The notes under the pieces were generated by a model. It made no database searches. It had not been told where the DNA came from and worked only from the letters and a program-made list of their open reading frames with translations. From Anaerolineales bacterium (GTDB lineage Bacteria > Chloroflexota > Anaerolineae > Anaerolineales > UBA6663), in assembly GCA_025057205.1 (NCBI GenBank), contig JANWXR010000003.1:1-35584 (forward strand): a stretch of 35,584 nucleotides of DNA, written 5' to 3'. Below, in pieces: positions 1,755 through 34,125 of this stretch. Both the position numbers and the translations under genes were made by a program. Position 1 is the first letter of the stretch. Every line of letters begins with the position of its first letter.

Positions 1755-2435
1755 TTACTGAATGGGCACCGGCTCTCCCAGCACCGGCGTAGGCCGGGCC
1801 ACAACGACATCCCAAACGGCAGCGACGGTCGCCAGCACCTCGCGCAGATTCCAAAAGATGAGCGAACTGCGCCGATACTCGCGGCGGTCGGCGGCCACGC
1901 CGGTAGCGGACAGGCCCAGCGCCTCACAGAGAAACAGCGCGCGCGGCAGATGAAAGGCCTGCGTCACCAGCGTCGCTTCAGTGACGCCGAAGATGGCCCG
2001 AGCGCGGTAACACGAGTCATAGGTGCGCCGCCCGGCATAGTCGAGTACGATGTCGGAGTCCGGCACGCCCAGCTCAAGTGCAACGGCGCGCATCGCGCCC
2101 GGCTCATTGTAATACTCAAAGCGATTGTCACCGCTGAACAGAAGCTTCTTCACTTTGCCGGCGCGGTACAACTCCACTGCGGTGAGGACACGATCATACA
2201 ACACCGCCGCCGGCCGCCCGTCTCGCCGTAAGCCAGCCCCAAAGACAATCGCCACGCGCGTAGGCGGCACGTCCGCCACCGCATGAATGTGCGGCTGATA
2301 GCGAAGCACCATGTAAAGGCGCGGCAGGGCCAGCCCCAGCCCAGCCAAAGTTAGGCCACCGATGACTCGCCAGAAAAGCTGCATGCAGAGAGAGTAACAC
2401 CGGAAGATGAGCCGTCCATAAATGCGTTTTGCCAC
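1755..2435 (-). CDS. SanA/YdcF (DUF218) family membrane protein
   Basis: 226-aa ORF with an N-terminal TM segment followed by a DUF218-like core (VAIVFGAGLRRDGRPAAVLYDRVLTAVELYRAGKVKKLLFSGDN ... LVTQAFHLPRA). The start is uncertain; an alternative ATG lies at 2384. Confidence 0.75.
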   Translation of the reverse strand: MAKRIYGRLIFRCYSLCMQLFWRVIGGLTLAGLGLALPRLYMVLRYQPHIHAVADVPPTRVAIVFGAGLRRDGRPAAVLYDRVLTAVELYRAGKVKKLLFSGDNRFEYYNEPGAMRAVALELGVPDSDIVLDYAGRRTYDSCYRARAIFGVTEATLVTQAFHLPRALFLCEALGLSATGVAADRREYRRSSLIFWNLREVLATVAAVWDVVVARPTPVLGEPVPIQ

Positions 2436-2726
2436 TCCATAATGTCGGCGGTTCCCGGCTTTGAACTTCTACGCCGACAAAAAATTAATTCTCCCGGTTC
2501 GTGTGTGCACGCAGAACATGTCAGCCGCACCCCGAGCGGACGGCGAGCGAATCCGAAGCAGCAGTCAAAGGGGCGGCGCATTCCCTGAAAACCTTTGCGT
2601 GCACACGGGTCTTAGGTCTTGATCCCCAGTGGCACGATTCAGTTTTACAAGTTAAGATTCGGTGTAGCTTGTCGAGTCTCGTGAGGTCGTATTCATCGAA
2701 CCTTAACAAGGTCTCATAAAGTCGTG

Positions 2727-3047
2727 TCAGGGTAAGCCCAAGGAAGCGCCAGTGGGTAGAGGATGAAACCCGGTGATGAAAGATACCTTGCCTAAACCGG
2801 CGATGGTGGTCGCACCCTGTGCGTCCATGTCCCATTCTTGATGGGGGCGTTGCGCCGGCTTTGCCTTCGCCCCGGATAAGTCGTGATGACGCTCATACTT
2901 GCGAACTTTTTTCTTCCAGTCACTTTGTCGCCATTTGTGGATCGTTGACAACGAACGTTTTAGTTCTTCTGCAATTTCACAACTGCTTCGCCCGCTTGCT
3001 ACCCGCTCAGCAATCGTGACGCATTCTGCCGGTGTAGTGGTTTGCAC
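2727..3047 (-). pseudogene. Helix-turn-helix transposase N-terminal remnant (truncated IS fragment)
   Basis: The ORF begins with an HTH typical of transposase N-termini (ECVTIAERVASGRSSCEIAEELKRSLSTIHKWRQ) and then degenerates. No catalytic domain follows. The flanking 2436-3182 region is lower-GC non-coding DNA. Confidence 0.4.
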
Positions 3048-3182
3048 TTGGAGCGCTCATCGTATCCATCTCGCGTTTGTTTTTGCTTCACAGGTATGTG
3101 ATGCGACTTTTTGAGACCTTGGTTAAGGGTAATACGACTTTTTGAGATTTCAAGCAACTACTTATCCTCGGTAGGCCGCTAT

Positions 3183-4217
3183 ATGCACTTGGATGAAACC
3201 CAACGTCGCTGGCTGGTTATCGGCCTGGTCGCGCTGACGTTGACTATCTGTGGAGCCGGTGCGATCTTTGCCCTCGGCCCATTGTTCATCAACGCCGCGC
3301 TCGACCTGGAGCCAGTGCCAACGCTGGTCGGTGCGCTGCCCACTCCCACCTTCACCCATACGCTGCCCCCGCCCACTCCAGTCACCACCGGCACACTTGC
3401 GGGGCACGTCTGGCTGGATCGTTGCCCGCCCGGGCAGGAAGCCACTGCCCGCTGTCTAACCGACCCGAATGGCCGCGCGCGCGGCAACGGCCAGCTGGAG
3501 CCAGACGAGGTTGGGATCGGCGGCATTACGCTCAAACTCGGCGCCGGCCTGTGCCCGGCTACTGGCCTGGCTCAGGCCACCACCGCGCCCGACGGTGCCT
3601 TCCGCTTTGACAATCTGGTCCCTGGCGTGTACTGCGTGTTGATTGACCCGACAGAGAACGGCACGCTCACCACCGGCGACTGGACAGCTCCACTCCCCGA
3701 CGCTCGCAAGCGCGCTCTCCAGCAGGTTGAGGTCAAACTGGGCGAAACGACCATCGTCAACTTCGGCTGGGACGACACCGTGCCGCCGACGCCCACCATC
3801 ACCCCGACGCCGACCATTACGCCCACGCCCACCATCACGCCGACGTTCACGCGCACGCCGCGCCCGACGAGCACGCGCACACCGATCACACCGACCATCA
3901 CAAACACACCGACGGCCACGTTGACACATACGCCGACGCCCACCGGCAGCGTCACCGTTACGCCAACGCCGTCGCGCACCCTGACGCCTACGCCGGTGAC
4001 CGCAACAGCGACGGCCACAAGTTCGGCGACGACAACACTTACACCATCCGCCACCGGTACACCCACACCGACCTCTACTGCTTCGATGACGCCCACCACC
4101 ACCAATACGCCGACAGCAACGCCGACCCCAACAAATACGGCCTTGCCAACCGACACTCCAACTCCAACGGCCACAGCCACACCGACTGAGACTCCGACTC
4201 CCTCACCCACTCCGTAA
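3183..4217 (+). CDS. Membrane-anchored/secreted protein: SdrD B-like (Cna-B type) domain plus about 150-aa Thr/Pro-rich tail
   Basis: The internal ATG at 3183 precedes a TM/signal anchor ([25 protein letters not shown]). An SdrD-B-like pattern follows ([25 protein letters not shown]...[24 protein letters not shown]). The C-terminus is pure TP repeats ([18 protein letters not shown]...) that end the protein. Confidence 0.8.
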
Positions 4218-5900: not shown

Positions 5901-6482
5901 TCATTTCAAATAGGCATTTAGGGTCTCGACCAGGCGCCGGAAATAGGGTAGGTGTTGTTGCAACGTTGCCGGACTCAGACCTGCCAATACCTGAAAGGAG
6001 CGCTTACCCTTTCGATACTGCTGACCTGTTGCACGCTCCAGCGCCTCTTGCACCTCGTCGCGTTGTCGTCGTTCCAAATCGTTCAACGGGAGAAGTGCTC
6101 CCTCATTCAGTGCGCTTCCGAAAAACTCCCGCAACGCGGCGCGATCAGCCATCATCCACGTTTCCATGCAGGTGACCATGAACTGTGCCTGGTCATCAAC
6201 GGCGGCGGCGGGTCGCTCCCAGCCGTCATGCACCTGTAGGTGCTCCCAAGGCGTCCGCGTCACAGGAACTTCGCTGTCCACCAACAAAATAGCGGTCTTG
6301 CCGGAGTCCAGCAGGGCCGTTTTGAATCGGTCGAATGTCGCACGACGCCCACCGCCGGCCACAATACGCGGCATCCGCCCGCTGAAACCGGCCTTTTCCA
6401 GAAGTTTGCGGAAGCCCTCGCGGCAACGGCTATGTTCTTCGCTGCTATCCCCGCCGCCTTCCACGTAAAGATAAACGCTCAC
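5901..6482 (-). CDS. DUF4276-like protein with TOPRIM-like acidic motifs (candidate nuclease partner of the upstream ATPase)
   Basis: Preferred start is the GTG at 6482..6480, which overlaps the ATPase TGA (6481..6479) in the tetranucleotide GTGA. Motifs are VYLYVEGGGDS, AILLVDSE and CMETWMMAD. The family name is recalled from memory, not searched. It ends 10 nt before the guaB ATG. Confidence 0.7.
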   Translation of the reverse strand: MSVYLYVEGGGDSSEEHSRCREGFRKLLEKAGFSGRMPRIVAGGGRRATFDRFKTALLDSGKTAILLVDSEVPVTRTPWEHLQVHDGWERPAAAVDDQAQFMVTCMETWMMADRAALREFFGSALNEGALLPLNDLERRQRDEVQEALERATGQQYRKGKRSFQVLAGLSPATLQQHLPYFRRLVETLNAYLK

Positions 6483-7711
6483 CAGCGCGTGCCCCCTAAT
6501 TCGCCCCGCGTCCACAGCTCGCCCAACCGATAGTCTTTCAACCAGTGCGCCAGTTGTTCACTCTCAAGCCGTTTCATCACCGTCTGGCCACCGTGTTTTT
6601 CACAAACGACAACGGTTTCGGGATGCTCGGTGAGCGCGTCCACCAGCACATCGGAATGGGTCGTAACAATAAGCTGAGAGCGCTCGGAAGCCGCCAGCAT
6701 CAGGTCGGCCAATTTGGGAAGGATATCCGGATGCAGGCCGAGTTCCGGTTCTTCGATGCCGATGAGGGGCGGCGGCTCGGGGTCGCACAAAATGGCTAAC
6801 AGACACAGATAGCGCAAGGCGCCATCCGAAAGGCGCGTGGCGGGAATGATGTAATCGCTCTCGGTGAAAAAGACCTGTACCGTGCCGGCCTCCACGCTCA
6901 CGTCAAAATCGGTCAGGCCGTCGTAGAGGTCACGCAGCGCATCGAGCAACTCGCCTTTGGCTTTGGGATGGCGGCGCAAACGGTTGAGAAACAGCCCCAG
7001 ATTGGAAAAATCTTCCTCCAGCCGGTCGGTGCGCAGGTCGGCTTTCTGCGGTTCGCGAAAGACGGTGTTGCGGCCAAACGCCCACTCGCGGTACAAACGG
7101 ATATCGTCATAGGCGTCGGCTAGTTCCGTAATGACCGGATAGGTTTCGGGGTCACGGCGCTGGGCCAGGATAGACACATCCGGTTCTACGCTCTCGCGCG
7201 CCAGTTTCCGTTCGCCGCTGACAGGCGCGATGACGGGCTGACCCTGTTGGTAACGATAGTAAAAATAGGGTGTGGATTGGCCGGGGTACGGACGCTCATT
7301 TTCGATACGCTCATCTTCCAGCCGGAAGGTCTGTTGTTCGGAGCGAAAGGCCAGCACGTGGCGCAAAGGCTGGCGTCCGTGCGGGTTATCCACAATGACC
7401 TCGAGCGTCGCCACACCTTTGGGGTCGCCTTTCCAAATCCACTCACTGACCCCGCCTCCTCGTCCGATGACCGTACGCAGATCCTTAGGAGAGGCACGGT
7501 TGGGTGTGGCCTGCAAGAGCGCAATAGCTTCCAGGAGGTTCGATTTCCCGGAGCCGTTCGGGCCGATGAGGACATTGAGACCCTGTAATTCCAGCGGCGC
7601 AGTGTCCGGGCCGAACGAGAGCAGGCGCCTCATCGTGATGGCGTGCAGGAGGCGCCGGCCAGACCCGGTTGATTGCGGCAGGACTTTGCTGGAAAAAGGA
7701 AGTGTGGTCAT
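6479..7711 (-). CDS. ABC/SMC-like AAA ATPase (AAA_21/AAA_15 type)
   Basis: Walker A is LIGPNGSGKSNLLEA and the ABC-signature-like motif is LSDGALRYLCLL. Walker B/D-loop is PLIGIEEPELGLHPD and the H-loop is IVTTHSD. There is no transmembrane or substrate-binding partner. Confidence 0.85.
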   Translation of the reverse strand: MTTLPFSSKVLPQSTGSGRRLLHAITMRRLLSFGPDTAPLELQGLNVLIGPNGSGKSNLLEAIALLQATPNRASPKDLRTVIGRGGGVSEWIWKGDPKGVATLEVIVDNPHGRQPLRHVLAFRSEQQTFRLEDERIENERPYPGQSTPYFYYRYQQGQPVIAPVSGERKLARESVEPDVSILAQRRDPETYPVITELADAYDDIRLYREWAFGRNTVFREPQKADLRTDRLEEDFSNLGLFLNRLRRHPKAKGELLDALRDLYDGLTDFDVSVEAGTVQVFFTESDYIIPATRLSDGALRYLCLLAILCDPEPPPLIGIEEPELGLHPDILPKLADLMLAASERSQLIVTTHSDVLVDALTEHPETVVVCEKHGGQTVMKRLESEQLAHWLKDYRLGELWTRGELGGTRW

Positions 7712-7753
7712 TGAGTACCTGTCCGCTTGTGTTCTTCCAACTTTGTCACAGCA

Positions 7754-8422
7754 TCAACGGTTTCTTCGGGCGCGCAGCTGCGCCAGGATTTCCGCCGGCA
7801 GGTTGAGGATCTCCCCGACCGTGAGCAGCGCATCCGGCTTCTCCCATAGCCACTCCACTTTGAGCCAGAAGCCGGGGATCAGGCGCGAATGGTAGATGCC
7901 GGCTTCCGGCTTGATCAGCTCGAACCGGCCCTGCGCATCGCGCTGATAGAAGAAGGCCCGCCGGCGGTCGGGGCGCGGGTCAATCACCCAATACTCCGGC
8001 ACGCCGCACTCCTGATACTCGACGAACTTCTCGTCGAGGTCGCGCGCGACGCTGTCGGCGGAGACGACCTCGATCACCACATCCGCCGGGCCTTCGATCC
8101 GCCGGTCGTTGGCCACGCGCGCCAGGTGCTCCGTAGCAACGAACACCACGTCCGGCTCGCGCGAGTTGCCATCCGGCCGGCAGCGCATCTCAATAGGCGC
8201 AGACCAAACCTGGCCCAATCCCAAGAAATCCGTGAACAACCCCAACAGCTTGGTCAAATAGGCGACCAGTGATTGATGTGTGATTGTCGGAGGCATATGC
8301 TCGATGATCTCCCCCTCCACCCATTCGACGAGGTGCGAGGACTGAGGCAGGGCCTGGTACTCTTCGTACGTTGCGCGCCGCCGCGCAAGCTCGGTCGGGA
8401 TTTCGATCACCTGCTCCGTCAT
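7754..8422 (-). CDS. Uma2 (DUF820) family PD-(D/E)xK endonuclease
   Basis: 222 aa. It shows the characteristic YEEY...EWVEGEII, PDVVFV and ADVVIEVVS motifs, plus YQECGVPEYWVIDP. Confidence 0.85.
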   Translation of the reverse strand: MTEQVIEIPTELARRRATYEEYQALPQSSHLVEWVEGEIIEHMPPTITHQSLVAYLTKLLGLFTDFLGLGQVWSAPIEMRCRPDGNSREPDVVFVATEHLARVANDRRIEGPADVVIEVVSADSVARDLDEKFVEYQECGVPEYWVIDPRPDRRRAFFYQRDAQGRFELIKPEAGIYHSRLIPGFWLKVEWLWEKPDALLTVGEILNLPAEILAQLRARRNR

Positions 8423-9990: not shown

Positions 9991-11055
9991 TTATTGTGTG
10001 ATTGAGCAATTGGGTAATTGAGTCAGTGGTCGCGCAGAGCGAGTTTTGAGCAAATGCAAGTTGATGTCATGAACCAACCCCGGCCCAGAGTACACCAGGC
10101 CGGTATAAAGCTGCACCAACGTCGCGCCGGCGTCGAGCTTTTCGAGCGCGTCATCGGGGCACAGGATGCCGCCCACGCCGATGATGGGCAGGTCGGTGCG
10201 GCGGGCGAGATAGCGGACGACGGCGGTGGACCGCGCGCGCAGCGGCTCGCCGCTCAGCCCACCCGACAGCGAGCGGGCGCGCGCCGGCAGCCCGTCGCGG
10301 CTGAGCGTGGTGTTGGTGGCGATCAGGCCGTCAACCCCGCAGGCGGTCGCGGCGGCCAGCGCGTCGTCGAGTTCGGCCTCGGTCAAATCCGGCGCGAGCT
10401 TCACAAGGAGGGGCGTGCGCCGCGGCAACCGGTCGCGCACCGCCGTCACGGCGCGCAGCAGGTCCTCGAGGAAGGCGCGCAGCTGCAACTGCCTCAGGCC
10501 CGGCGTGTTCGGGCTGCTGAGGTTGAGCGCCACGTAATCGGCGCATTCGTGGACTCGTTCGAGCAGCGCGCAGTAATCCTCGGCGGCGCGCTCAAGCGGC
10601 GTGTCGCGGCCTTTGCCGATGTTCACTCCGATACGTAGAAAGTAGCGAGTAGAAAGTAGGACTTTCCACTTTCTACTTTCTACCATCAACGCTTCAACCC
10701 CGTTGTTCGGAAACCCCATGGCATTCACCAGCGCCTGCGCTTCAGGCACGCGATGAACGCGCGGCTTCGGGTTGCCGGCCTGCGGCAGAAGCGTCACTGT
10801 GCCCACTTCGATGTGGCCAAAGCCGAGGGCCGCCAGCCCGCTCACCGCTACGCCGTTTTTGTCGTAGCCCGCCGCCAGCCCAACCCGATTCCTGAACCGC
10901 AGCCCGAAGGCCTCCACCTCCAGCCGCGGGTCGTTCACCTCGAACAGGGCGCGCAGCACCACGTCCGCAAACGGCAGACGCAGCGCGGCCAGCGTGAGCG
11001 CATGGGCGCGTTCAGGGTCGAGGCGGAAGAGGAGGGGACGCAGGGCGTGATACAT
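9991..11055 (-). CDS. pyrD: Dihydroorotate dehydrogenase (quinone), class 2
   Basis: The start is taken at the internal ATG 11055 (MYHALRPLLFRLDPERAH). Motifs include GFPNNG, NLSSPNTPGLRQLQ and IIGVGGI. The stop lies 4 nt before the purH ATG. Confidence 0.93.
   Translation of the reverse strand: MYHALRPLLFRLDPERAHALTLAALRLPFADVVLRALFEVNDPRLEVEAFGLRFRNRVGLAAGYDKNGVAVSGLAALGFGHIEVGTVTLLPQAGNPKPRVHRVPEAQALVNAMGFPNNGVEALMVESRKWKVLLSTRYFLRIGVNIGKGRDTPLERAAEDYCALLERVHECADYVALNLSSPNTPGLRQLQLRAFLEDLLRAVTAVRDRLPRRTPLLVKLAPDLTEAELDDALAAATACGVDGLIATNTTLSRDGLPARARSLSGGLSGEPLRARSTAVVRYLARRTDLPIIGVGGILCPDDALEKLDAGATLVQLYTGLVYSGPGLVHDINLHLLKTRSARPLTQLPNCSITQ
10635..10683. repeat. AT-rich nested palindrome (GTAGAAAGT / ACTTTCTAC) lying in-frame inside pyrD
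   Basis: The sequence is gtagaaagtagcgagtagaaagtaggactttccactttctactttctac. The 9-bp arms GTAGAAAGT/ACTTTCTAC sit inside outer GTAGAAA/TTTCTAC arms. It encodes the SRKWKVLLSTRYFL loop segment. A related GTGGAAAGTAGCGA motif is present at 19921-19934. Confidence 0.8.
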
Positions 11056-11098
11056 GACTCGGTGACGGGGTGACAGGGTGACGATTGTAATCACCCTC

Positions 11099-12553
11099 TC
11101 ACCCTGCCAGAAACGCCATGACTTCATCATACTGCGCCGCCGTCACCGCCCCGCTCTCGCGCCAGAGCGCCAGCAGCTCGCGCAGCGTGGTGACCGCGTG
11201 AAGCGTGTAACCCGCCGCCGCCAGCGCCTCGCGCGCGCCCTGTTCCCGGTCAATGAGCACGACGATGTCGCGCACCTTCAGACCGGCGGCCTCCAGCTTC
11301 TGAATGGCCTCGAGCTTCGTGTCGCCGGTGGTCGCCAGGTCGTCGAGCACGACGACGGTTTCACCCGCCGCGTAGTCGCCCTCGATGGCGGCCTTCGTCC
11401 CGTAGTCCTTCACCTCGCGGCGCGGGTAGAGGAGCGGGCGGTTCATCTCCAGCGCCACCGCCGTGCCGATAGGCAGCGCGGCGTACGGCAGGCCGGCCAG
11501 GCGGTCGAACCGCAGCCCGGCGAGCACGCCGGCGTAGGCGCGCGCGGCCAGTTTGAGGATGGGAGGATGAGAGATGAGACGGCGCAGATCGAGATAGATG
11601 GGCGATTGCAGGCCGGACTTGAGCGTGAAGCTGCCGAAGCGCACGCATTGCGAGTCGACCAGGGCCTGAGCGAGCCCGACGACGGCGGAACGCGGGCGGC
11701 TGACCGCCGTCTGCGGTCGGCGGCCTGCGGTCATCGCGTGGCGCATGCGCTCGATGGCATCGCGCCACTCCGCCGCCGCCCTGTTCCAGTTCGCGGCGCG
11801 GGAGATGGCGCGCGAGACCGGGATGAGCATCCCCGCGCCGTCGGCCCGCAGGCCCGCGCGCAGCGCCGTCTCCAGGTCGCCGCCCTGCGCGCCAATACCG
11901 GGAGCGAGGAGCCACACATCGGGCGAAAGGGCGCGCACGTGGCTCAATGCCTCCGGCTGCGTCGCGCCGACCACCAGGCCGACGTTGCCGTTGCGGTTCC
12001 ACTGCTGCGCCAGCAGGGCTACTTGCTCATACACCGTCCGCCCGTCTGCGAGCTTCAGGTCTTGCACGTCGCCCGCGCCGGGGTTCGACGTTTTGCACAG
12101 CAGAAAGACTCCGCGCTCGCGGTCGGCGAGGAACGGGGCGAGCGAATCCTCGCCGAGGTAGGGCGAGAGCGTGATGGCGTGCGCGCCGAGCTTCTCGAAG
12201 GCGGAGCGGGCGTAGGCCTCGGCGGTGGAAGCGATGTCGCCGCGCTTTGCGTCGAGGATGACGGGGGTGAGGGAGCCGGTGCGGTGCGACTCTTCCTGAA
12301 CGACCTCGATCACCCGCTTGAGCGCCGCCCACCCCTCCGGCCCATACAACTCGAAGAAGGCGGCGTTGGGCTTGTAGGCGGCGGCGTAGCGCGAGGTCTC
12401 GCGCACCAGGCGCACGCAGAAGTCGAGCGCGGCGTCTGCGTTGGCCTGCGGCAGGTCGTTGGGGTGCGGGTCGAGGCCAACGCACAGCAGCGAGTGCGTG
12501 ATGTGAACGCGGCGTTCCAAAAGAGAGAAGAACGTTTCCACTCGAAACCGCAA
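11099..12553 (-). CDS. pyrF-pyrE: Fused OMP decarboxylase (N-terminal, type 2) / orotate phosphoribosyltransferase (C-terminal)
   Basis: The N-terminal half has LLCVGLDPHP and ILDAKRGDIASTAEAYA. The C-terminal half has FGSFTLKSGLQSPIYLDLR and the PRPP loop VVVLDDLATTGDT. The track start at 12553 is TTG; the GTG at 12541 (METFFSLLERR) is an equally plausible start. Confidence 0.9.
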   Translation of the reverse strand: MRFRVETFFSLLERRVHITHSLLCVGLDPHPNDLPQANADAALDFCVRLVRETSRYAAAYKPNAAFFELYGPEGWAALKRVIEVVQEESHRTGSLTPVILDAKRGDIASTAEAYARSAFEKLGAHAITLSPYLGEDSLAPFLADRERGVFLLCKTSNPGAGDVQDLKLADGRTVYEQVALLAQQWNRNGNVGLVVGATQPEALSHVRALSPDVWLLAPGIGAQGGDLETALRAGLRADGAGMLIPVSRAISRAANWNRAAAEWRDAIERMRHAMTAGRRPQTAVSRPRSAVVGLAQALVDSQCVRFGSFTLKSGLQSPIYLDLRRLISHPPILKLAARAYAGVLAGLRFDRLAGLPYAALPIGTAVALEMNRPLLYPRREVKDYGTKAAIEGDYAAGETVVVLDDLATTGDTKLEAIQKLEAAGLKVRDIVVLIDREQGAREALAAAGYTLHAVTTLRELLALWRESGAVTAAQYDEVMAFLAG

Positions 12554-14875: not shown

Positions 14876-14904
14876 ATTGTACGCGGAGCAAGGCGCGGAG
14901 TCAA
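14876..14904 (-). promoter_or_regulatory. Near-consensus sigma70-type promoter for the pyr array
   Basis: The minus strand reads TTGACT-17 nt-TACAAT (ttgactccgcgccttgctccgcgtacaat). It starts 1 nt after the TAA of the upstream DsbA-like gene. Confidence 0.5.
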
Positions 14905-14905: not shown

Positions 14906-15628
14906 TTACGGGCCGAGCAGCGCGTCAATCCGCGTCTTGTACTCCTCGAAGTCAATCGGGTTAGTCACGCGCTGACCATTAATGAAGACGGTCGGCGTCC
15001 GGTCAACGCCCAGGCTGCGCGCCAGGGCTTCATCCTCCCTGACGGCTGCAGCATAGCGCCCGGAGTCCAGGCAGCTGTTGAACTGCCCCTGGTCCAGACC
15101 CAGCCGCTCGGCAAAAGCCTTCAATCGCGCATCGCGAAAATTGCCAGCGCCTTCGCCTCCGGCATTGGCAAACAGAATGGCATGATATTGCCAAAACCGG
15201 CCCTGCTCTCGCGCGCACTCGCTGGCCTCCGCCGCCCGGCGAGACTCGTTGCCGCCGCGATTGCCATCAATCACGATGAAATGCCGGAACTCGAGGCGCA
15301 CGCTCTTGCCGGCGTTGATGTACTCTTCCTTGATCCGGCGACCCGCGCCGGTAGCCAGAACGGCGCAGAACGGTCACTGGAAGTCGGAGAACTCCTGGAT
15401 GACCACGCGCGCATCGCGCGGGCCGAGCGCCTTTCCGTCTGCCAGAGAATAATCGGCCTCAGGCGGCGTGATGATCTCGCCCACCGGCTGCATGTCCTGG
15501 ATCAGGCGCGGCCCGATCAACACCGCCACCACCAATAGGACAACAACCGTCACTGCGCCGACTGCGACCATCTGGCGGCGGCGCTGTTGCTGTTGCCGCC
15601 GTTTACGAAGTTCTTCTCGTTTGCTCAT
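14906..15628 (-). CDS. Membrane-anchored DsbA-family thiol:disulfide oxidoreductase with in-frame TGA at the first CxxC position (candidate selenoprotein, U-P-F-C)
   Basis: Track ORFs 15374..15628 and 14906..15301 are in the same frame (468 nt apart). Read-through gives ...VVIQEFSDFQ-[TGA]-PFCAVLA...RLEFRHF...ECAREQGRFWQYHAILF...GVDRTPTVFINGQ. This is a complete DsbA/Thioredoxin_4 pattern, with the TGA (15376-15374) exactly where the nucleophilic Cys belongs. Confidence 0.75.
15335..15369 (-). promoter_or_regulatory. Candidate bacterial SECIS hairpin(s) downstream of the TGA
   Basis: Hairpin A spans +5 to +32 after UGA: UCUGCGCCG / CGGCGCGGG, about 9 bp including G-U pairs, with loop UUCUGGCUAC. 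Hairpin B spans +23 to +39: CCGGCG-cgggu-CGCCGG. The two are mutually exclusive, and both place G-rich apical loops about 15-35 nt from the UGA. Confidence 0.4.
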
Positions 15629-15636: not shown

Positions 15637-15642
15637 ATTATA
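15637..15642 (-). promoter_or_regulatory. Perfect TATAAT box 8 nt upstream of the DsbA-like ATG (leaderless-type arrangement)
   Basis: The minus strand reads gagTATAATcctggcctATG. No convincing -35 was found. Confidence 0.35.
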
Positions 15643-15875: not shown

Positions 15876-18800
15876 TCAAATCTTGACCAGCGCTTCGCGA
15901 TAGGCATCCAGCGCCTTCTGCAAGCGACCGGCGCGCATGTAGGCATCGCCGAGCAATCGCAGGAAAATCAGCGAGTCCGGGTTGCGGGCAAGGTAGGCTT
16001 CCAGTTCAACAATCACTTCGTCGAGCTTATGGCCCGACCGGATGAGGTGCTCAAAGCGCGCCTGCGCCTCAGCCAGTTCGTTGCTTTGTAGCGCTGCCTG
16101 CGCCTGACCAAGCACTGCGGTGTGGGTCTGGCCGGCGAAGGCTGACTTGCGCGGCTTGCGTGGTCGGCGCGTCAGGCGCACGCCGGTTGGGAGGCGTACC
16201 GCCGGCGTGCGGGCAACGACAGGCTCCGGCTGCTCTGGCAGCACGGAAGCAGGTGATGGCGTTGAGGCAGGCTCGGTCGCAGCAGTGGGGGGCGTGTCGG
16301 TGCGGCGGCGTGGGGTGCCGGTTCCGACTTCGGCGCGGCGCGCGCGGCGCTCTTCCATGCGTTGTTGGATCTCGCGCTGGGCGGCTTCCCGTTCGGCGCG
16401 TTCCCGCTCGAGGCGTTCGGCTATTTCCTGTTCCTTGGCGCGGCGACTGGCGGATAGGCGCTCGGCCAGGCGTACCAGCCGTTCATCGCGGCTCAGGGTT
16501 GAGGTGGCCGATGGTTCGGGGGGGGTCGGCACAGAGGCGATCGGCGGCGCTTTGACCCAGTCCGGCGGCTCGATGACCGGCTCAGGCACAGGCTCTTCCG
16601 GAAGGGGCGGCTCCGGCTCGGCCACCAGGTTGCGCAACTCTTCGGCGATCGGGGCTGGGCGCGCGGCCAAGCTCTCCAACCAACGCATGGCTGCGTCTTC
16701 ATCAATCATGGGTGGAGCAGCAGACGGCTCGGCGGGAGGAACCGCAGCTTCGGCTGGCAACTCTGCTTTTATAGCGGCTGACCAGTCTGACACGGTGGGT
16801 GCAGACGGCGCCGTAATCGGGGGAGGCTCTTCTTCCACCGGCACAGCCGTTTCACTCTCGGCGGTGATCCAAATGGGCGGGCGGTCGGTGCGGTCTTCGG
16901 GACGGGTCGTCAGTTCAGCAGGGTCTACGCCCTGACGCACAGCGAGGCTCTCCAGCCAGCGCATAGCCTCGTCATCACTCAACGTGCTGAAATCGGGCAC
17001 GGGGGCGGCAGCAGCGGGCGTCTTCGCTTCAATCGCCTCGGTCATTTCGAAGATATCGGGCAGTGTGCCGGTCGGCGGCATGAGAGGACTGGACGGCTCT
17101 TCCAAGTTGGCGGACTTTTCGATGGATTGCGGCGCCTCAACCGCCGAGGCCGGCTCCTCCGGCAATGTCCACTGGGGCGGTGCGCTCTCCGCTTCGGGCG
17201 GCGGGGTGAAGGCGGCCCGTTCCTCGGCAGTGGTCGTCAGCTCAGCAGGGTCAACGCCCTGACGCGCGGCGAGGCTCTCCAGCCAGCGCAGGGCGTCTTC
17301 CGTGCTCATCTCACCCACGTTGTGCACGGCAGAGGCGGGAGGCGTGGGCGCTTGGGCGAGGACAGGCTCAACCGGTGGTGCGCTCTCCGCTTCGGGCGGT
17401 GGGGTGAAGGCGGCCCGTTCCTCGGCAGTGGTCGTCAGCTCAGCAGGGTCAACGCCCTGACGCGCGGCGAGGCTCTCCAGCCAGCGCAGGGCATCGTCTT
17501 CACTTAGCGCGCTAACATCCGGCACAGCCGAGACCGAAGCAGCGGGTCGTTCGGGCGCACCGGCGGCCCATTCCGGCAAAGTCGGCTCGGCCGGGAGTTG
17601 CTCGAGGCTGGCTGCCGGTTGTTCAATCGGCGCAGGCTCGGCGGTCTGTTCTTCGGCGCGCGCCTGCGCACGCATTTTGCGCAACCAGTCGGGCACGTCC
17701 TTAGAGCGGAGCCACCCCACGATGGTTTCCGAAGCGCCGGGCGGGGCCGGCTCAGCCCAGGCCGGAACTTCCAGAGCAGGCGGCGCCGAGGTTTCTTCGG
17801 CGGCAGGCGGCGCTGCTTCACCGGCGGGCTCGGCTGAGGGTTGCGTAGCTTCGGGCGGGGTACGTAGCCAGTCTGGCACTTCTTCGAGAGCGATGGGCGG
17901 CAAGTCTGCGTCAGAGACTGCCGGCGGCGCGGAGTCAACAGGTGCCATTGCCTTCACCCAGTCCGGCACTTCGCCGACTTCAATCGCCGCTTCTTCTTCG
18001 CCGAGCGGCGTAGGCGAAGAGTCCCAATCCACCGGGGCGTTGGCGCGCGCAATAGCTTCTGGTGAGGCAGGCTGGAGGAAATCGGGCAATTCAACGGCAG
18101 GCGGAGAGACAGGCGCCTCTGCAGCAGCCGTTGCGGGCGGCGGCTCCGGCTCTTCGGGCGGTGCAGCCGATTTTTCGGGCGGCACGGCTTGCAACCATTC
18201 GGGCAAGGGGAGGGCTTCGGCGTCGGAGGCTGCGGCGGCAGTTCCACCGGCAGCAGTTCCGCCGACGGTTGCCAGCCAAGGCGGAAGTTCGTCAAGGTCG
18301 GTCGGGGCCGCCGGCTCGAGCCAGTCCGGCATGTCTGCTGCGGGTGTGGCGCTGGTTGCCGGTGGGATGTTTCTGAGCCAGGCGGGGAGTTCATCTTCAT
18401 CCAACATCTGGGTCGGCTCGTCCGGCCCCAGACGGCGTGTCAGCTCTCCTTCAGCAGAGTGCAAGGGTGCGGAAACATCCAACCCGCCAGTCTTCAGCCA
18501 GTCGGGCAGGTCATCCGCCAAGCGCGCCGTAGGGCCTTCGCCCGCAATGGGAGCAGTTGGCCGCCAATCGCCCAGCATTTCGGTGAGGGATGGCTCCACG
18601 GGCTTGGAAGGCGGCGGCGGGGCGATGTCCTTCAGCCAATCGGGGATTTCTCCTTCCGCGAGGGATGTAGTCATCGGCTTTCCGAGCGCTGTGACTGCCG
18701 GCTCCTGAGTCAGCCAGCCAGTTGGCTTGGTAGGATCTTTCGGCTGTTCTTCGGTTTCGTACGAGGGGCTGGCTATCACACCGGTGGTGGCCTTCATCCA

Positions 18801-19844
18801 GTCAGGCAACTCGGCGGTGACCGGGGCGCTGATCGGCTCCACGTCGCGCATCCAGTCGGGCACCTCCCCTGGCTCGGGCAATTCAGTGGTGAGGGCTTCG
18901 GCCAGGTCGTCGGTCAGTGCGCCGGTTCCGAGGGTGAGCGCGCCGGTCTGCCCGGCAAGCAGATCGGTGCCCAGACGCAACCACTCAGGCTCATCGGCGC
19001 TCACCGCCGGCGTCGCCGCTTCAAGATCGGCACCGAGCGATTCGGCCCAATCCGGTGCAGCAGCAGCCGAACGATCGGGGTCGTACACGAGCAGAGGCAC
19101 GCGGACGGCGTCATCGCGCACGGGGGCAGCCAGCGGGTCATCGGTGAAACGCTCATAGGGATCGAGCGCTTGCAGACGTTGTTGATAGGGCCGCGCTTCA
19201 TCGGCGCGGTTCTGGGCAATGAGTAGGCTGGCCAGCAGGCGGTTGGCTTCCTGGTTGTAAGGCAGCTTCTGAAGCACAGCGGCGGCCACTTCGGCGGCTT
19301 CGGCGCGCCGGCCGTTTTCGGCCAGCACCCGCGCCAGCAGGGCGCGCAGGTCTAAGCGCTCCGGGTCTTCGGCCAGAGCCGCGCGCAATTCGACCTCGGC
19401 CTGCGTGAACAGGTCGCCACGCGCATACAGGCGAGCCAGCCCGCCGCGGGTCAGGCGCGCCCGCGGCGGCACTACGCCGTCGCGGCGCCCATACAGCCGG
19501 CGCAATTCTTCCTGCACGGCGACGTTCGACGGGTTGCTCTCGAAGGCGCGCTCCATATGCCAAAGCGCGGCCTCCAGGTTGGATTCGTCCTCGCGCACGA
19601 TGGCCATGCCGACGTGGGAGACGAAGTCATCGGGCACAGCAGAGAGCACACGCTGAAAGATGTCGGCGGCGTCTCCATGGCGGCCCTTTTCTAGCAGCGC
19701 CTTACCCAGCAGGCGATAGGTCTCGATATTTTTGGGATAGTGGGTAAGGATGTGTTTACAGTGGGAGATCGCTTCATCGAACTGCTTCTGCTCGATGTGC
19801 TGATCAATCTGCCGGAGGTACGTGCGCAATGCGATGTCGGCCAT
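15876..19844 (-). CDS. Giant TPR-flanked protein with acidic/Pro-rich repeat core
   Basis: The start is taken at ATG 19844 (MADIALRTYLRQIDQHIEQ), preceded by a GAGGA SD; the track start at 19895 is TTG. TPR-like helices occupy both ends. The core carries about 15 copies of [ED][LVI]P[DEAP]W[LMV][KRQ] and 4 copies of RWLESLA. Confidence 0.85.
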   Translation of the reverse strand: MADIALRTYLRQIDQHIEQKQFDEAISHCKHILTHYPKNIETYRLLGKALLEKGRHGDAADIFQRVLSAVPDDFVSHVGMAIVREDESNLEAALWHMERAFESNPSNVAVQEELRRLYGRRDGVVPPRARLTRGGLARLYARGDLFTQAEVELRAALAEDPERLDLRALLARVLAENGRRAEAAEVAAAVLQKLPYNQEANRLLASLLIAQNRADEARPYQQRLQALDPYERFTDDPLAAPVRDDAVRVPLLVYDPDRSAAAAPDWAESLGADLEAATPAVSADEPEWLRLGTDLLAGQTGALTLGTGALTDDLAEALTTELPEPGEVPDWMRDVEPISAPVTAELPDWMKATTGVIASPSYETEEQPKDPTKPTGWLTQEPAVTALGKPMTTSLAEGEIPDWLKDIAPPPPSKPVEPSLTEMLGDWRPTAPIAGEGPTARLADDLPDWLKTGGLDVSAPLHSAEGELTRRLGPDEPTQMLDEDELPAWLRNIPPATSATPAADMPDWLEPAAPTDLDELPPWLATVGGTAAGGTAAAASDAEALPLPEWLQAVPPEKSAAPPEEPEPPPATAAAEAPVSPPAVELPDFLQPASPEAIARANAPVDWDSSPTPLGEEEAAIEVGEVPDWVKAMAPVDSAPPAVSDADLPPIALEEVPDWLRTPPEATQPSAEPAGEAAPPAAEETSAPPALEVPAWAEPAPPGASETIVGWLRSKDVPDWLRKMRAQARAEEQTAEPAPIEQPAASLEQLPAEPTLPEWAAGAPERPAASVSAVPDVSALSEDDALRWLESLAARQGVDPAELTTTAEERAAFTPPPEAESAPPVEPVLAQAPTPPASAVHNVGEMSTEDALRWLESLAARQGVDPAELTTTAEERAAFTPPPEAESAPPQWTLPEEPASAVEAPQSIEKSANLEEPSSPLMPPTGTLPDIFEMTEAIEAKTPAAAAPVPDFSTLSDDEAMRWLESLAVRQGVDPAELTTRPEDRTDRPPIWITAESETAVPVEEEPPPITAPSAPTVSDWSAAIKAELPAEAAVPPAEPSAAPPMIDEDAAMRWLESLAARPAPIAEELRNLVAEPEPPLPEEPVPEPVIEPPDWVKAPPIASVPTPPEPSATSTLSRDERLVRLAERLSASRRAKEQEIAERLERERAEREAAQREIQQRMEERRARRAEVGTGTPRRRTDTPPTAATEPASTPSPASVLPEQPEPVVARTPAVRLPTGVRLTRRPRKPRKSAFAGQTHTAVLGQAQAALQSNELAEAQARFEHLIRSGHKLDEVIVELEAYLARNPDSLIFLRLLGDAYMRAGRLQKALDAYREALVKI
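17179..17492. repeat. Near-identical 116-bp direct repeat pair, 198-bp period, inside the TPR gene
   Basis: 17179-17294 and 17377-17492 differ at a single base (gcggcgggg versus gcggtgggg). They encode DALRWLESLAARQGVDPAELTTTAEERAAFTPPPEAESAPP twice. More diverged copies lie near 16900-16975 and 16660-16700. Confidence 0.9.
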
Positions 19845-19932
19845 AGGCGTATCCTCGTCGCTGAGGAGTATCCTACGTTTTAAGGCATTTTGCAACCGGG
19901 AGGGAGGTAGAAAGAGGAGAGTGGAAAGTAGC

Positions 19933-29076: not shown

Positions 29077-29529
29077 CTCTATACAAGTATGACGCGCCGG
29101 CCCCGGCCTCAGTGACGAGATCATACCAAATACCAAACGCTCCGCCGGTAAATTCATGTAAAATGGCGGCACTCCAACGCCGAAAGGAAAGACCATGACA
29201 AAACAATATGCCACGCCTCCGGCGCTCACGATTGACCCAACGAAGAAGTAGGTGCGTAGCGCCGCCCTGGTCGTACTCACTGCGCCCTTACTGTGACCCC
29301 GCCCTCCTGCCCGCATTGGCCGAGTTGGTGCACGACCCCGAACTGGAGGTACGCTACTCAGAGGCGCGAACCATTGGCTGGTGCTGGGAAATGCTGCAAG
29401 TGATTTACTGGACTCTGGCAAATGGAACTTTTGGTGCCAGACATAGCGGCTTGATGCTTTGCCTGACCGCCATATCTTGTGTCCGAGCCGGGATTTGCCA
29501 GACTCCAGTCAGTTATCTATCTCCCCCTT

Positions 29530-31509
29530 ATGCCCCACCGCTCCGTCCTCTATGAACTCATCGTGCACCTCGATACCGGCCAGTGGGGCGTCAGCGTCCC
29601 GTTGGATCAATCGCTCATTGGCCCGGTGAGCTACGGCTGGGATCGGTATCAGAAAGACCCCGAGTCGCTGACCTTCGGCGGCGGGCTGCTGGCCGGCTCA
29701 CCCCTGCCCGGCACACGACGGATGATCTTCTGCGGTTACTCGCCGCAGTGGGAGGACTTCTACGTCTCGGCTCTTGGCGGCGCCATGTATGTCATGCGCC
29801 GTCTCGGCGTGAACTATGTCTGGCTGCGTGGACGTGCGCCGGTGGACTCGGTGCTCCTCCTGAACTTGAAGAACGGCGAGTACAGCGTTCGCCTTGAGCC
29901 AATTGACGCGGACGCACTCTGGCGCGGCTATACTGATGCCACCGGGCGCACCTGGGAGGGCTTCTACGCACTGCAACAGGCGGTCTTTGAGAAATACAAG
30001 AGCAACTACGAAGGCGACTGGCTGCGCGTGCTGGCCGTCGGCCCGGCGGCACGCTACACCAAAGAAGGCGCCATCGGCAGCAGCCAGGTCAAGCGCGGCG
30101 TGCTCTCACACATTGACGACTGGGCCGGGCGCGGCGGCCTCGGCTCGCGGCTGCTGCAGCATCACCGCATCGCAGCCATCGTCTTCGGCGGCGACTGGCA
30201 AGACCCGGCGATGAGGGAAGGGAAGGAGCTGGACCAATACTTCCTCGAGCGCTTCGGCATGAAGGCTATTCAGGCCGACCTGATGCTGGCGGAGAAGTAC
30301 CGTTACGTTCCCAAGTTCCAGACCGGCGGCACTTTCGGCGTAAACATGCACACCGCCAACGACCGGCTGCTGGCCTTCAACTACCGTTCAATCTACGCGT
30401 CAGAAAAGGCGCGGCTTGACCTGCATGATAACTTTATCCTCGATCACTACCTCCGGCAATTCAACGAGGAGACCATCAGACCCAGGAACTTCGACCATTG
30501 CGGCGAACCATGTGCAGTAGCGTGTAAGAAGTTCTTTGGCGAGTACAAGAAGGACTACGAGCCATACGCCGCGCTGGGGCCGTTGTGCGGCGTCTTCGAC
30601 CAGCGCGCCGCCGAGCGGCTGAACAAGTATGTGGACACCATGGGCCTCGACGCAATCCAGGCGGGCGGCATGGTGGCTTGGATCATGGAATTGATTGCTG
30701 AGGGCCTGATCCCACCGGGAGACTTCGGGCTACCGGAGGACGGGCCAAGAGGGTTCACGTCCATCCGTGATAGAGGAACCGGGGGAGAGGGCCGACTGCC
30801 AACCCCTGCCGACTTCGATGTCGTCCGCGACTCTGCCCACAACGCCGATTACGCGATCGCCATCGTGAAGATGATTCTCTTCGACGAGCGCGGCGCTGTA
30901 TTCCGCCAGGGGATACGCGCTGCCGCCAAAACCCTCGACAGGCTTTACGGTATCAACAGCATAAACCGCACAGCCTATACCGCCCACGGCGCAACAGGCT
31001 GCATGGTTCCCAACCAGTACTGGACCCCGGGCATGCTCGCACCCATGCCGCTGATGGGCAAATACTTCTCCTTCTACGAAAACAAGTTCTACCCGCCGCG
31101 CGCGCTAGGGCGGAAGAACGTCGAGCGCTTCGTCTACGAATTGTATTCGGAGAACACCGGCGCTTGCCGCTTCCATCGCAAGTGGACGGAGGAGCTGATT
31201 GCTGAAATTGTGACTGCCCACTTCCTGCTGCCCGACCTCGACTACTGGCAGATGAACTTCAACCTGGCCAAAGCTATTCATGACCATCAGTCGGCGCGCG
31301 GCGTGATGTGGGAGAGCGAGCGGGTGGTAGACATGGTTTACGGGTTCCTGCAGAACTGGGAAATAGATGGCTTAAAGGAGCCGGAGTTGCTAGACTGGCT
31401 GGCCCGCTTCCGCCATGACAAATGGCAAGCCGCCCGCGACTTCTGGCAGGAGATGTATGCCGGTATGAGCGAGGCTTTCGCCGAAGGCTTCCCGGAGCCG
31501 AAACCCTGA
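29530..31509 (+). CDS. Divergent aldehyde:ferredoxin oxidoreductase (AOR) family paralogue
   Basis: The start is taken at ATG 29530 (MPHRSVLYELIVHLD). It is alignable with the canonical AOR at 32225-34048: GTRRMIF, SALGGAMYVMRRLG, WAGRGGLGS, DYEPYAALGP, DTMGLDAIQAG and TGACRF. The cluster motif is HCGEPCAVAC (C-x3-C-x3-C) instead of C-x2-C-x3-C, and SPLTG is replaced by SPQWE. Confidence 0.85.
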   Translation: MPHRSVLYELIVHLDTGQWGVSVPLDQSLIGPVSYGWDRYQKDPESLTFGGGLLAGSPLPGTRRMIFCGYSPQWEDFYVSALGGAMYVMRRLGVNYVWLRGRAPVDSVLLLNLKNGEYSVRLEPIDADALWRGYTDATGRTWEGFYALQQAVFEKYKSNYEGDWLRVLAVGPAARYTKEGAIGSSQVKRGVLSHIDDWAGRGGLGSRLLQHHRIAAIVFGGDWQDPAMREGKELDQYFLERFGMKAIQADLMLAEKYRYVPKFQTGGTFGVNMHTANDRLLAFNYRSIYASEKARLDLHDNFILDHYLRQFNEETIRPRNFDHCGEPCAVACKKFFGEYKKDYEPYAALGPLCGVFDQRAAERLNKYVDTMGLDAIQAGGMVAWIMELIAEGLIPPGDFGLPEDGPRGFTSIRDRGTGGEGRLPTPADFDVVRDSAHNADYAIAIVKMILFDERGAVFRQGIRAAAKTLDRLYGINSINRTAYTAHGATGCMVPNQYWTPGMLAPMPLMGKYFSFYENKFYPPRALGRKNVERFVYELYSENTGACRFHRKWTEELIAEIVTAHFLLPDLDYWQMNFNLAKAIHDHQSARGVMWESERVVDMVYGFLQNWEIDGLKEPELLDWLARFRHDKWQAARDFWQEMYAGMSEAFAEGFPEPKP

Positions 31510-32224: not shown

Positions 32225-34048
32225 TTACGGGATGTCGAGTTCCTTCAGCTTGCTCTCCGGAACGACGCCGTTCTCCCAGCCGCGCGCCTTGTAGTACTCT
32301 TCCAACATCAGGTCGAGTTCGCAGACGTGGCCCTTTGAACCGGCCATGGTCGAAGGCTCGGTGGTAAAGCGCTTGGGCAGATAGTCCGAGCCTTCACGGA
32401 AGCCAGCCAGATTGTTGTAGTAGCGCTCCAGGTTGTAGATGCGCTCGCCGCTCTTCAGCACATCATCCGCCGTGAAGGGCACGCCGACAATGGCGGAGTA
32501 TTGCTGCGCATACTCCTCGGCGCCCTCGGCGAAGGCGCTGAACTTACACAGGTCGAGGCTGTCCGAGAAGGCGTGCACGTCCTGGAAGACCTTGGTCAGC
32601 TCGCCCTTGCCCTTCCAGGCCAGCGGGTCCACTTTGAGCGAGCCGAAGGGCATCACGCCCAGTTCCGCTGCTGGGGTGTAGGCGCGCAGGTGACAGGCGC
32701 CGCGGTTGCTGGTGGCGTAGGCGATGCCCATGCCCTTCAGCCCGCGCGGATCGTAGGCGGGGACGCCCTGGCCCTTGACCGTCATGGCGATCTCCGGATG
32801 GCCGAAGTATTTGGCAACCGCGTCCGCGCCATCCGCCAGGATGTTGCCGAAGCCTTCGCGTAGCGCGATCTTGCGCACGGCTTCCACCATGCCGAAAATA
32901 TCGCCCCACCTCAGACTGCCGGAGCCGTCGGTCCAGCCCTTCTCGGTGGCCTCCATCCACACCCCGAGCGGGTGGCCGGTCTCGATGGCATCCAGACCGT
33001 AATCGTTGCACAGGTCAATCATCTTGGCGACCGTGGCCACATCGTTATTGCCCAGGTTCGCGCCCAACGACCAGGCCGGCTCATACTCCACGCTCTCCAT
33101 GCGCAGGCCCTTCCATGGCCCTTCTTTGATCTCGACCTCCTTCTTGCAAGCCACCGGGCAGGCGTGACAAGTCGGGTCATCCACGAGGAGATGCTCCTTG
33201 ACGTACTCGCCGCTGATCTTCTCGGCGTCCGCGCCGAAGGAGGTCAGCATGCTGTTCTTGGTCGGCAGGGCACCCATGTTGCTGGTGATGTTCATGAGCA
33301 CATTGGTGCCGTAAACCGAGAGGCCGCCCTTGCGCGGGCTGGTGATGTTTTCCGGCGCCATGATCGCCTTGAGGGCGCGCTCGTGCGCTGCCTTCCAGGC
33401 ATCCTTGTCGGCGGGCTTGGGCATCTTCTTCTCGGCCTTAATGACAATGGCCTTGAGCTTCTTGCTGCCGCCCACGCAGCCGGTGCCACCGCGGCCCGAG
33501 GCGCGGTCGTTCTCGTTCACCCAGCAGGCGAACTTCACCAGGTTCTCGCCGGCCGGGCCGATGGCGATGACGGTCAGATCCTTCTCGCCGTACTTCTGCT
33601 GGAAGTGCTTGACCGTGTCGTGCACACCTTTGCCCCAGACCTCGGAAGCATCGTGTAATTCAACGACTCCGTCATGGACATAGGCATACACTGGCTTTTC
33701 CGACTTGCCCTTGAAGATGAGGCCATCGAAGCCTGCCCAGCGCAGGCGCGCCGCGCTCCAGCCGCCATGATGGCTGTCGGTGACGGTGCCGGTGAGCGGT
33801 GACTTGGTGACGATGGCCATGCGGCCGCTCAGATTAGCTTCGGTGCCGGTGAGCGGCCCGTTCATGAAACACAACAGGTTGTCCGGGCCAAGCGGGTCTA
33901 CCTGCGGCCCAGCCTCGAAGACATAGCGGACTCCCAGACCGCGCCCGCCGATGTACTTCCGCTTCCAGTCTTCTGGAATGGGCTTGTATTCCACCGTTCC
34001 GGCGGACAGGTCAATGTGGCCAATTCGATCAGCGTAACCTCCAAGCAT
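32225..34048 (-). CDS. aor: Aldehyde:ferredoxin oxidoreductase (tungstopterin enzyme family)
   Basis: The start is taken at ATG 34048 (MLGGYADRIGHIDLS), preceded by a GAGGAGG SD. Motifs include SPLTG, ASGRGGTG, DPTCHACPVAC (4Fe-4S Cys), EYEPAWSLG, CNDYGLDAIETG and DSLDLCKF. Confidence 0.93.
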   Translation of the reverse strand: MLGGYADRIGHIDLSAGTVEYKPIPEDWKRKYIGGRGLGVRYVFEAGPQVDPLGPDNLLCFMNGPLTGTEANLSGRMAIVTKSPLTGTVTDSHHGGWSAARLRWAGFDGLIFKGKSEKPVYAYVHDGVVELHDASEVWGKGVHDTVKHFQQKYGEKDLTVIAIGPAGENLVKFACWVNENDRASGRGGTGCVGGSKKLKAIVIKAEKKMPKPADKDAWKAAHERALKAIMAPENITSPRKGGLSVYGTNVLMNITSNMGALPTKNSMLTSFGADAEKISGEYVKEHLLVDDPTCHACPVACKKEVEIKEGPWKGLRMESVEYEPAWSLGANLGNNDVATVAKMIDLCNDYGLDAIETGHPLGVWMEATEKGWTDGSGSLRWGDIFGMVEAVRKIALREGFGNILADGADAVAKYFGHPEIAMTVKGQGVPAYDPRGLKGMGIAYATSNRGACHLRAYTPAAELGVMPFGSLKVDPLAWKGKGELTKVFQDVHAFSDSLDLCKFSAFAEGAEEYAQQYSAIVGVPFTADDVLKSGERIYNLERYYNNLAGFREGSDYLPKRFTTEPSTMAGSKGHVCELDLMLEEYYKARGWENGVVPESKLKELDIP

Positions 34049-34092
34049 AGAAGCCTCCTCTAAGGTGTGGAGTGTGGGGTGAATTAAACACA

Positions 34093-34125
34093 ACAGGCGT
34101 TATGCTCACAGTGCGCAACGCCTGT
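34093..34125 (-). promoter_or_regulatory. Hairpin in the AOR 5' leader (attenuator candidate)
   Basis: ACAGGCGTT-15 nt-AACGCCTGT is a 9-bp stem. On the minus strand it is followed by UGUGUUUAAUUC, about 30 nt upstream of the SD. Confidence 0.3.

Follow-up and report, generated by a model that had tools for sequence, protein, structure and literature searches.

Does the in-frame TGA that interrupts a dsbA-like gene in an Anaerolineales genome put an end to the protein, or does it encode a selenocysteine (Sec) residue? The gene is located at positions 14906..15628 on the minus strand of a 35,584-nucleotide (nt) stretch of DNA (contig JANWXR010000003.1, assembly GCA_025057205.1), which was analyzed along its whole length and is referred to below as the window. 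An earlier note on this DNA had proposed that two neighboring open reading frames (ORFs) were in fact a single gene, in which the TGA occupied the place of the nucleophilic cysteine of a DsbA-like CxxC motif. The comparative evidence presented here suggests that this is a genuine selenoprotein gene with Sec at the nucleophilic active-site position, an interpretation to which we assign a probability of about 0.9.

The gene starts at an ATG (15628-15626), ends at a TAA (14908-14906), and comprises 240 codons, the 85th of which is the TGA (15376-15374). The translation agrees with the proposal that the two ORFs make up one gene: in the standard ORF list it is split into a part encoding 84 residues (15374..15628) and another encoding 131 residues from a GTG at 15301 (14906..15301), and apart from the TGA at codon 85 there is no second stop and no frameshift within 15628..14906. 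In the translation of the minus strand (15628..14906), the TGA stands in the context VVIQEFSDFQ-*-PFCAVLATGAGRRIKEEYI. When Cys is written at codon 85, the read-through product matches the Pfam families PF13462 (Thioredoxin_4; 3e-30, 106 bits, with a cut-off of 23.2) and PF01323 (DSBA; 3.4e-18, 66.6 bits, with a cut-off of 25.6), and all the motifs previously quoted in support of a DsbA/Thioredoxin_4 protein are present. The catalytic domain extends over residues 67-236 (14921..15430, minus strand). The redox motif U-P-F-C, which is the equivalent of CxxC (15365..15376, minus strand), begins with the proposed Sec codon (15374..15376, minus strand) and aligns exactly with the CPFC active site of the solved DsbA, MdbA, and BdbD structures, the closest of which are those of the actinobacterial DsbA (4PWP/4PWO) and the BdbD of Bacillus subtilis (3EU3), with E-values ranging from 1e-14 to 1e-7. 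The residues C85, P86, and C88 are invariant in the alignment, called A1, as are T211 and P212 (14993-14998, minus strand), which occupy the position of the cis-proline loop.

The N-terminal part of the protein, as read from its sequence, opens with a basic stretch covering residues 1-19, after which residues 20-40 form a hydrophobic helix, the two being encoded by 15509..15628 on the minus strand and conserved in the homologs; the full-length Cys homologs, which are 235-243 residues long, share the same MSKREELRK... start. Since residues 1-84 include no Cys, the window protein has no lipobox, and its N-terminus, with a hydrophobic helix of 21 residues, looks like an uncleaved signal anchor and not like a lipoprotein signal. 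In the light of the positive-inside rule, the catalytic domain is probably located outside the cytoplasm. Judging from these features, the product is almost certainly a 240-residue membrane-anchored thiol-disulfide oxidoreductase of the DsbA/BdbD/MdbA type.

The TGA is conserved in an independent 3.7-kb metagenome contig from another sample (Logan; L001), which shows 78% nucleotide identity with the window, the identical gene order, and a TGA at the same site in the context gatttccagTGAccgttctgc. Between these two sequences, the nonsynonymous and synonymous substitution rates (dN/dS) were 0.148/0.832 (~0.18) in codons 1-84 and 0.147/0.760 (~0.19) in codons 86-240. These ratios indicate purifying selection on either side of the TGA, which has been retained at a dS of ~0.8; a decaying pseudogene is therefore ruled out, in line with the earlier argument that the gene shows no other lesion.

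The distribution of the codons at column 85 was analyzed in the species-representative genomes of GTDB, a scan of which gave 80 loci with 87 homologous sites. The predicted alternation between Cys and Sec was borne out: 29 sites carry TGA and 58 carry TGY (43 TGC and 15 TGT). The four closest GTDB genomes, with 57-62% identity, are metagenome-assembled genomes (MAGs) of Anaerolineales (L125, L126, L127, and L133), all four of which have TGA at this site, and the dsbA-dihydroorotase-pyrB-pyrF/E order of the window is also found in L125 and L126. When metagenomes were scanned for the pattern D-F-Q-TGA-P-F-C, at least 123 matches in at least 120 stretches were obtained; at least 116 of them are DsbA homologs, the alignment of which with the window protein spans the TGA.

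Further evidence comes from the RNA downstream of the UGA, where a hairpin resembling a selenocysteine insertion sequence (SECIS) is encoded at 15335..15351 on the minus strand (CCGGCG-CGGGU-CGCCGG). It has a 6-bp stem and the apical loop CGGGU, the stem beginning 22 nt and the loop 28 nt from the UGA; if the U of UGA is counted as position 1, the stem is formed by positions 26-31 and 37-42. In an alignment of 32 Sec forms, which were selected on the basis of protein homology and not of structure, 91% of the cells in this helix are paired, and compensatory double changes occur at three of the six pairs (U-A 21 / C-G 7; G-C 11 / A-U 10 / G-U 7; C-G 26 / U-G 4 / U-A 2). Some of the changes that preserve pairing replace an amino acid (Gly to Asp, Gln to Arg). 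Immediately 5' of the main hairpin there is a possible, weak mini-helix of 3 bp (GCC-GUUCU-GGC; 15354..15364, minus strand), the counterpart of which in most relatives, at positions 14-16/22-24, has 65% of its cells paired, with GC, CG, and AU variants. In 500 column shuffles, the covariation score of the main helix and the mini-helix taken together was not attained once, and pairing fell from 82% to 27-54% when the partner was shifted by 1-3 columns.

This helix distinguishes the Sec forms from the Cys forms. All six pairs can form in 24 of the 29 GTDB Sec forms vs. none of the 58 Cys forms, in which the mean pairing amounts to 35%. The mean minimum free energy (MFE) of the 42 nt following the motif is -13.8 kcal/mol in the Sec forms vs. 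-8.1 kcal/mol in the Cys forms (p = 2e-7), part of this difference being explained by the GC content. Four Sec forms (L156, L165, L180, and L198), which belong to one protein clade, lack the helix and, a few nucleotides upstream, have another hairpin, CGCCCUCGGGCCAGGGCG. Not a single substitution separates the window from L001 at positions 25-60, and synonymous change is suppressed over the hairpin (dS of 0.24 in codons 86-104 vs. 0.88 in the rest of the C-terminal part).

The search with a covariance model, which the earlier note had recommended, was performed with a model (R1) built from 26 relatives, the window and L001 being left out. R1 finds the hairpin in the window at 15376-15317 with 62.6 bits (E = 6.3e-15), which is the sole significant match in the 35.6 kb, the next one having an E-value of 0.13; the Cys-form loci mostly score 14-31 bits. 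The hairpin also agrees with the published model of bacterial SECIS (bSECIS) elements, which specifies a loop of 3-9 nt, a stem of 4-16 bp, a G in the first two loop positions, a UGA-to-loop distance of 16-37 nt, and an MFE of -7.5 kcal/mol or lower (PMC13188914): in the window, the corresponding features are a 5-nt loop, 6 bp, a G at loop position 2 followed by another G, 28 nt, and -9.6 kcal/mol when the hairpin is folded by itself. Two alternative hairpins had initially been described downstream of the UGA; both of them exist, but only that at 15351-15335 is conserved. The other one, in which positions 8-16 pair with 27-35 and which belongs to the MFE fold of the single sequence, was rejected: 61.5% of its cells are paired among the 32 Sec forms, 176 of 500 shuffles were as good, and no covariation was detected.

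As regards the machinery required to insert Sec, the evidence is indirect and comes from related sequences. In a metagenome contig (L029), a thioredoxin reductase gene (trxB, 87-1073; TIGR01292, 359 bits) is followed by a tRNA-Sec gene (1143-1239) and a Sec-form dsbA-like gene (1377-2105) with its TGA at 1656-1658, so that selC lies directly upstream of a member of the family. The Anaerolineaceae MAG of isolate H61_600 (L129) carries a tRNA-Sec gene (18130-18224, minus strand) about 8 kb from a Cys-form DsbA homolog. In a Chloroflexota MAG (L202), a SelD homolog (2155-3204, minus strand) has an in-frame TGA in LSHGAG-*-ACK, at which the standard ORF ends and which is the classical Sec position of SelD. 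The latter was the only real SelD obtained when all 1.7 Mb of the retrieved loci were searched by tBLASTn with E. coli SelA, SelB, and SelD, as a source of leads only; a SelB lead in L055 turned out to be TypA/BipA according to NCBIfam. The Chloroflexi have been listed among the phyla using Sec (PMC1794560).

Several points weigh against the interpretation of this gene as a selenoprotein gene. No selA, selB, selD, or tRNA-Sec gene was found within the 35.6-kb window, based on Pfam searches on 20 flanking ORFs and on ARAGORN, which detected no tRNA at all; the Sec competence of the source organism is deduced from its relatives. Folded as a single sequence in its GC-rich context, the segment 15310-15380 is no more stable than shuffled sequences (z = 0.07), and a competing helix that is not conserved is present in the MFE fold of the window sequence. 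Since the folding energy of the sequence on its own is thus unexceptional, the evidence for the hairpin is comparative and not thermodynamic. In addition, the mini-helix in the window (and in L001) forms only one nucleotide out of register, and the consensus loop-closing N1-N2 pair is C.U in the window, where it is unpaired. No Rfam family was found in the window at the gathering thresholds, although a match with a bacterial SECIS was not to be expected there. Lastly, we know of no experimental record of selenium incorporation in the subfamily to which the window protein belongs.

What other processes might account for a TGA at this site? It is conceivable, but very unlikely, that the codon is recoded without selenium, for example because a suppressor or near-cognate tRNA inserts Trp, Cys, or Gly, or because the genetic code is reassigned, and that the hairpin merely stimulates read-through. 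Downstream RNA structures can indeed stimulate stop-codon read-through in other systems, and the lack of any visible Sec machinery within the window would fit this explanation. On the other hand, TGA is the commonest ordinary stop in the window, where it terminates 10 of the 19 ordinary genes, and the dsbA-like gene is the only one with an internal TGA, which means that the code has not been reassigned. The position concerned is that of the catalytic Cys, where function can be kept only by Cys or Sec, and the hairpin fits the consensus of SelB-type bSECIS elements (PMC13188914). Furthermore, a tRNA-Sec gene lies beside a member of the family in L029, and tRNA-Sec and a Sec-containing SelD are found in MAGs of related Chloroflexota.

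A nonsense mutation from TGC or TGT to TGA in an ordinary DsbA-like gene, giving rise to a pseudogene, is even harder to defend. The change would take only one mutation; Cys is present at 58 of the 87 GTDB sites and in nearly all of 120 homologs among the matches listed, and gene callers split or shorten the gene, as in the database predictions P0001 and P0054 (150 residues each). But the TGA has been retained across a dS of ~0.8 with a dN/dS of ~0.18 on either side, it occurs at the same column in many diverged lineages, there is no second lesion in the gene, and the covarying hairpin goes with the TGA forms and not with the Cys forms.

We give equally little credit to the idea that the TGA is a true stop separating two functional products, namely an 84-residue membrane peptide and a C-terminal thioredoxin-fold fragment with an internal start (the GTG at 15301 or that of the 150-residue call). 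Both ORFs exist, and a 150-residue product is what gene callers predict, but such a fragment would lack the nucleophilic residue, the first beta-strand, and the export signal, as well as the xxC part of the motif if it started at GTG 15301; in addition, there is no homolog lacking the TGA that is divided naturally at this place, and conservation continues across the junction. That the TGA was created by a sequencing or assembly artefact is barely credible: the window looks like a metagenome-type contig, and in a 150-nt patch directly before the TGA it hardly differs from a Cys-form lineage (L003), as might occur in a chimeric assembly, but the same TGA and context are present in other samples and pipelines (L001 from Logan, L125-L133 among the GTDB MAGs, and JGI contigs), and the segment with the TGA and the hairpin matches the Sec-form lineage even if the contig is chimeric upstream.

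With a genuine selenoprotein gene, the UGA at 15376-15374 would be decoded as Sec and not as a stop. The mRNA hairpin at 15351-15335, located 22-39 nt past the UGA, would act as a bacterial SECIS element, recruiting SelB-GTP and Sec-tRNA(Sec) to the ribosome so that Sec would be inserted. The enzyme might then cycle between a selenolate/thiol form and a U85-C88 selenenylsulfide, exchanging disulfides with exported substrate proteins and acting as an oxidase, a reductase, or an isomerase. Selenols have a lower pKa than thiols and are better nucleophiles and leaving groups, and selenenylsulfides are more stable than disulfides. Based on this chemistry, we would expect the window enzyme to show faster exchange and a less oxidizing couple than a Cys enzyme.

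DsbA-like selenoproteins had been said in the earlier note to have been predicted before, and they have in fact been catalogued since 2005 (PMC1088965, PMC1794560, PMC5029168, PMC13188914). Those with the UxxC motif were first predicted from the Sargasso Sea data, which yielded nine sequences (PMC1088965), and were subsequently found in Anaeromyxobacter, Desulfovibrio, and Desulfotomaculum (PMC1794560); DsbA-like selenoproteins were reported in 41 organisms in a later survey (PMC5029168), and a catalogue dating from 2026 includes a DsbA-like family ("DsbA-like protein form 1," PF01323) and a "DsbG-like protein, UxxC" tied to NF041057 (PMC13188914). The window protein has in common with the DsbA-like family the DSBA/thioredoxin fold, Sec as the first residue of CxxC, widespread Cys homologs, and a bSECIS hairpin downstream of the UGA with a G in a small apical loop. 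The published examples, as described, were assigned to COG2761 (FrnE-type DsbA), and their sources are mainly marine bacteria, Deltaproteobacteria, and Firmicutes, whereas the window protein is of the Thioredoxin_4/BdbD-MdbA type, has an N-terminal membrane anchor, and comes from Anaerolineales.

The best NCBIfam match of the window protein is NF041057 (Rcas_1661 family thioredoxin-like (seleno)lipoprotein), named after a gene of the Chloroflexi (Roseiflexus), with which it shares the domain and the UxxC chemistry. The score of 108 bits is below the equivalog cut-off of 190 bits, as is the case with six other Chloroflexota Sec forms whose best NCBIfam match is also NF041057 (115-170 bits). Contrary to the members of a lipoprotein family, the window protein lacks a lipobox Cys and starts with what looks like a signal-anchor helix, and is therefore not a lipoprotein; because of the score under the cut-off and the missing lipobox, it is not a member of the NF041057 equivalog. 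The window gene is thus a new, divergent, membrane-anchored member of an established kind of UxxC selenoprotein.

In the case of BdbD (3EU3) and the actinobacterial DsbA/MdbA proteins (4PWP, 4PWO, and 5C00), which are membrane-tethered or secreted, CPFC or CPSC is found at the same place, with Cys instead of Sec, and the redox partners are BdbC and VKOR. The arrangement of an in-frame UGA followed by a hairpin within the coding region, with conserved G residues in the apical loop, is shared with the SECIS/SelB system of E. coli fdhF, which represents the canonical mechanism of Sec insertion in bacteria. The minimal fdhF hairpin carries a bulged U, and its first nucleotide lies about 11 nt downstream of the UGA. 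The window hairpin differs from it in being 17 nt long, starting 22 nt after the UGA, lacking a bulge, and being possibly preceded by a small second helix; its binding by SelB is proposed here by analogy.

Sec and Cys forms are interleaved within the Chloroflexota in a neighbor-joining tree, where the Sec pair formed by the window and L001 has L002 and L003, two Cys forms, as its sister group inside a clade consisting mostly of Sec forms. L002 (10196-10255) is the syntenic ortholog of the window gene; it carries TGT, has kept five of the six hairpin pairs, and scores 45 bits with R1. Two other Cys forms, L175 (10049-10108; 45 bits) and L187 (632-691; 54 bits), also retain most of the hairpin. 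The hairpins of L002, L175, and L187 look like fossil SECIS elements left after a conversion of Sec to Cys. Comparisons on the catalytic domain between Sec and Cys forms gave a raised dN/dS of ~0.40, vs. 0.18 in the Sec-Sec pair, the dS of which is similar, and 0.14 within the Cys pair.

The substitutions are unevenly distributed between the window and L003. Over the roughly 150 nt that lead up to the UGA (codons 35-84, 15377-15526), the window gene is 92-100% identical to the Cys-form L003:551-700, with a dS of 0.22, vs. 1.15 in codons 1-34 and 1.58 in codons 105-240. Such a pattern points to recombination that broke off at the active site, or else to an assembly that is chimeric. From this patch, the fossil hairpins, and the raised dN/dS, one may form the idea that in the conserved Anaerolineales locus encoding the TPR protein, DsbA, dihydroorotase, and PyrB the active-site residue switches back and forth between Sec and Cys, and that some of these exchanges occur through recombination breaking at the redox motif. 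We put this idea forward tentatively and regard it as rather doubtful; if it were true, catalytic modules with Sec and with Cys would be exchanged within natural populations. One Anaerolineales MAG (CALFZO01) harbors the Sec form L125, located in the syntenic pyr locus, together with a Cys paralog, L132, on another contig.

Some other features of the window were recorded. A scan for genes interrupted by a single TGA revealed no convincing second selenoprotein in the window. A TATAAT box (15637-15642, minus strand), conserved in L001, ends 8 nt before the dsbA ATG, which suggests that the dsbA mRNA might be leaderless or have a very short leader. A near-consensus promoter-like sequence, TTGACT-17-TACAAT (14876-14904, minus strand), occupies the gap that separates the stop codon of dsbA from the start of the dihydroorotase gene, and L001 has this sequence as well. 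In L002, the dihydroorotase gene (10846-11834) lies in two frames (called as 163 and 190 residues), owing to either a frameshift or a sequencing error. The TPR-containing protein of 1339 residues (15876-19895, minus strand), which is conserved upstream of dsbA in L001, L002, and L128, contains about four internal repeats of a 40-60-residue unit (...[AM]LRWLESLAARQGVDPAELTT...) and many P/E/A-rich "PDWL/PEWL" motifs. Between guaB (IMPDH) and purH, at 5901-8422 (minus strand), there are genes encoding a DUF4276 protein, an AAA_21 ATPase, and a Uma2-family endonuclease, which may form a defense or toxin-type module within a nucleotide-biosynthesis gene cluster; the DUF4276/AAA_21 pair is found at the same place in L002. 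Lastly, the window carries two genes of the aldehyde:ferredoxin oxidoreductase (AOR) family, at 29479-31509 (plus strand) and 32225-34093 (minus strand), one of which is canonical (AFOR_C, 7e-127) and the other highly divergent (AFOR_C, 3e-17).

The family and the mechanism in question were already established, and no new question is opened by this locus. R1 provides a well-supported, clade-specific SECIS model, and the close Sec and Cys orthologs with fossil hairpins could serve for studying how an exchange between Sec and Cys reshapes a redox enzyme. There is also a gap in the annotation, as gene callers reduce the window gene and many of its relatives to fragments of 150 or 84 residues. Since these genes are truncated by the callers and their scores with NF041057, the closest curated selenoprotein model in NCBIfam, fall below the cut-off, a common selenoprotein of the Chloroflexota, the Sec form of which occupies roughly one in three of the homologous GTDB sites sampled, may be missed or mis-called in routine annotation. 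As far as the organism is concerned, the window gene adds a membrane-anchored, probably extracytoplasmic, Sec-containing enzyme of the DsbA/BdbD type to the selenoproteome of the Anaerolineales.

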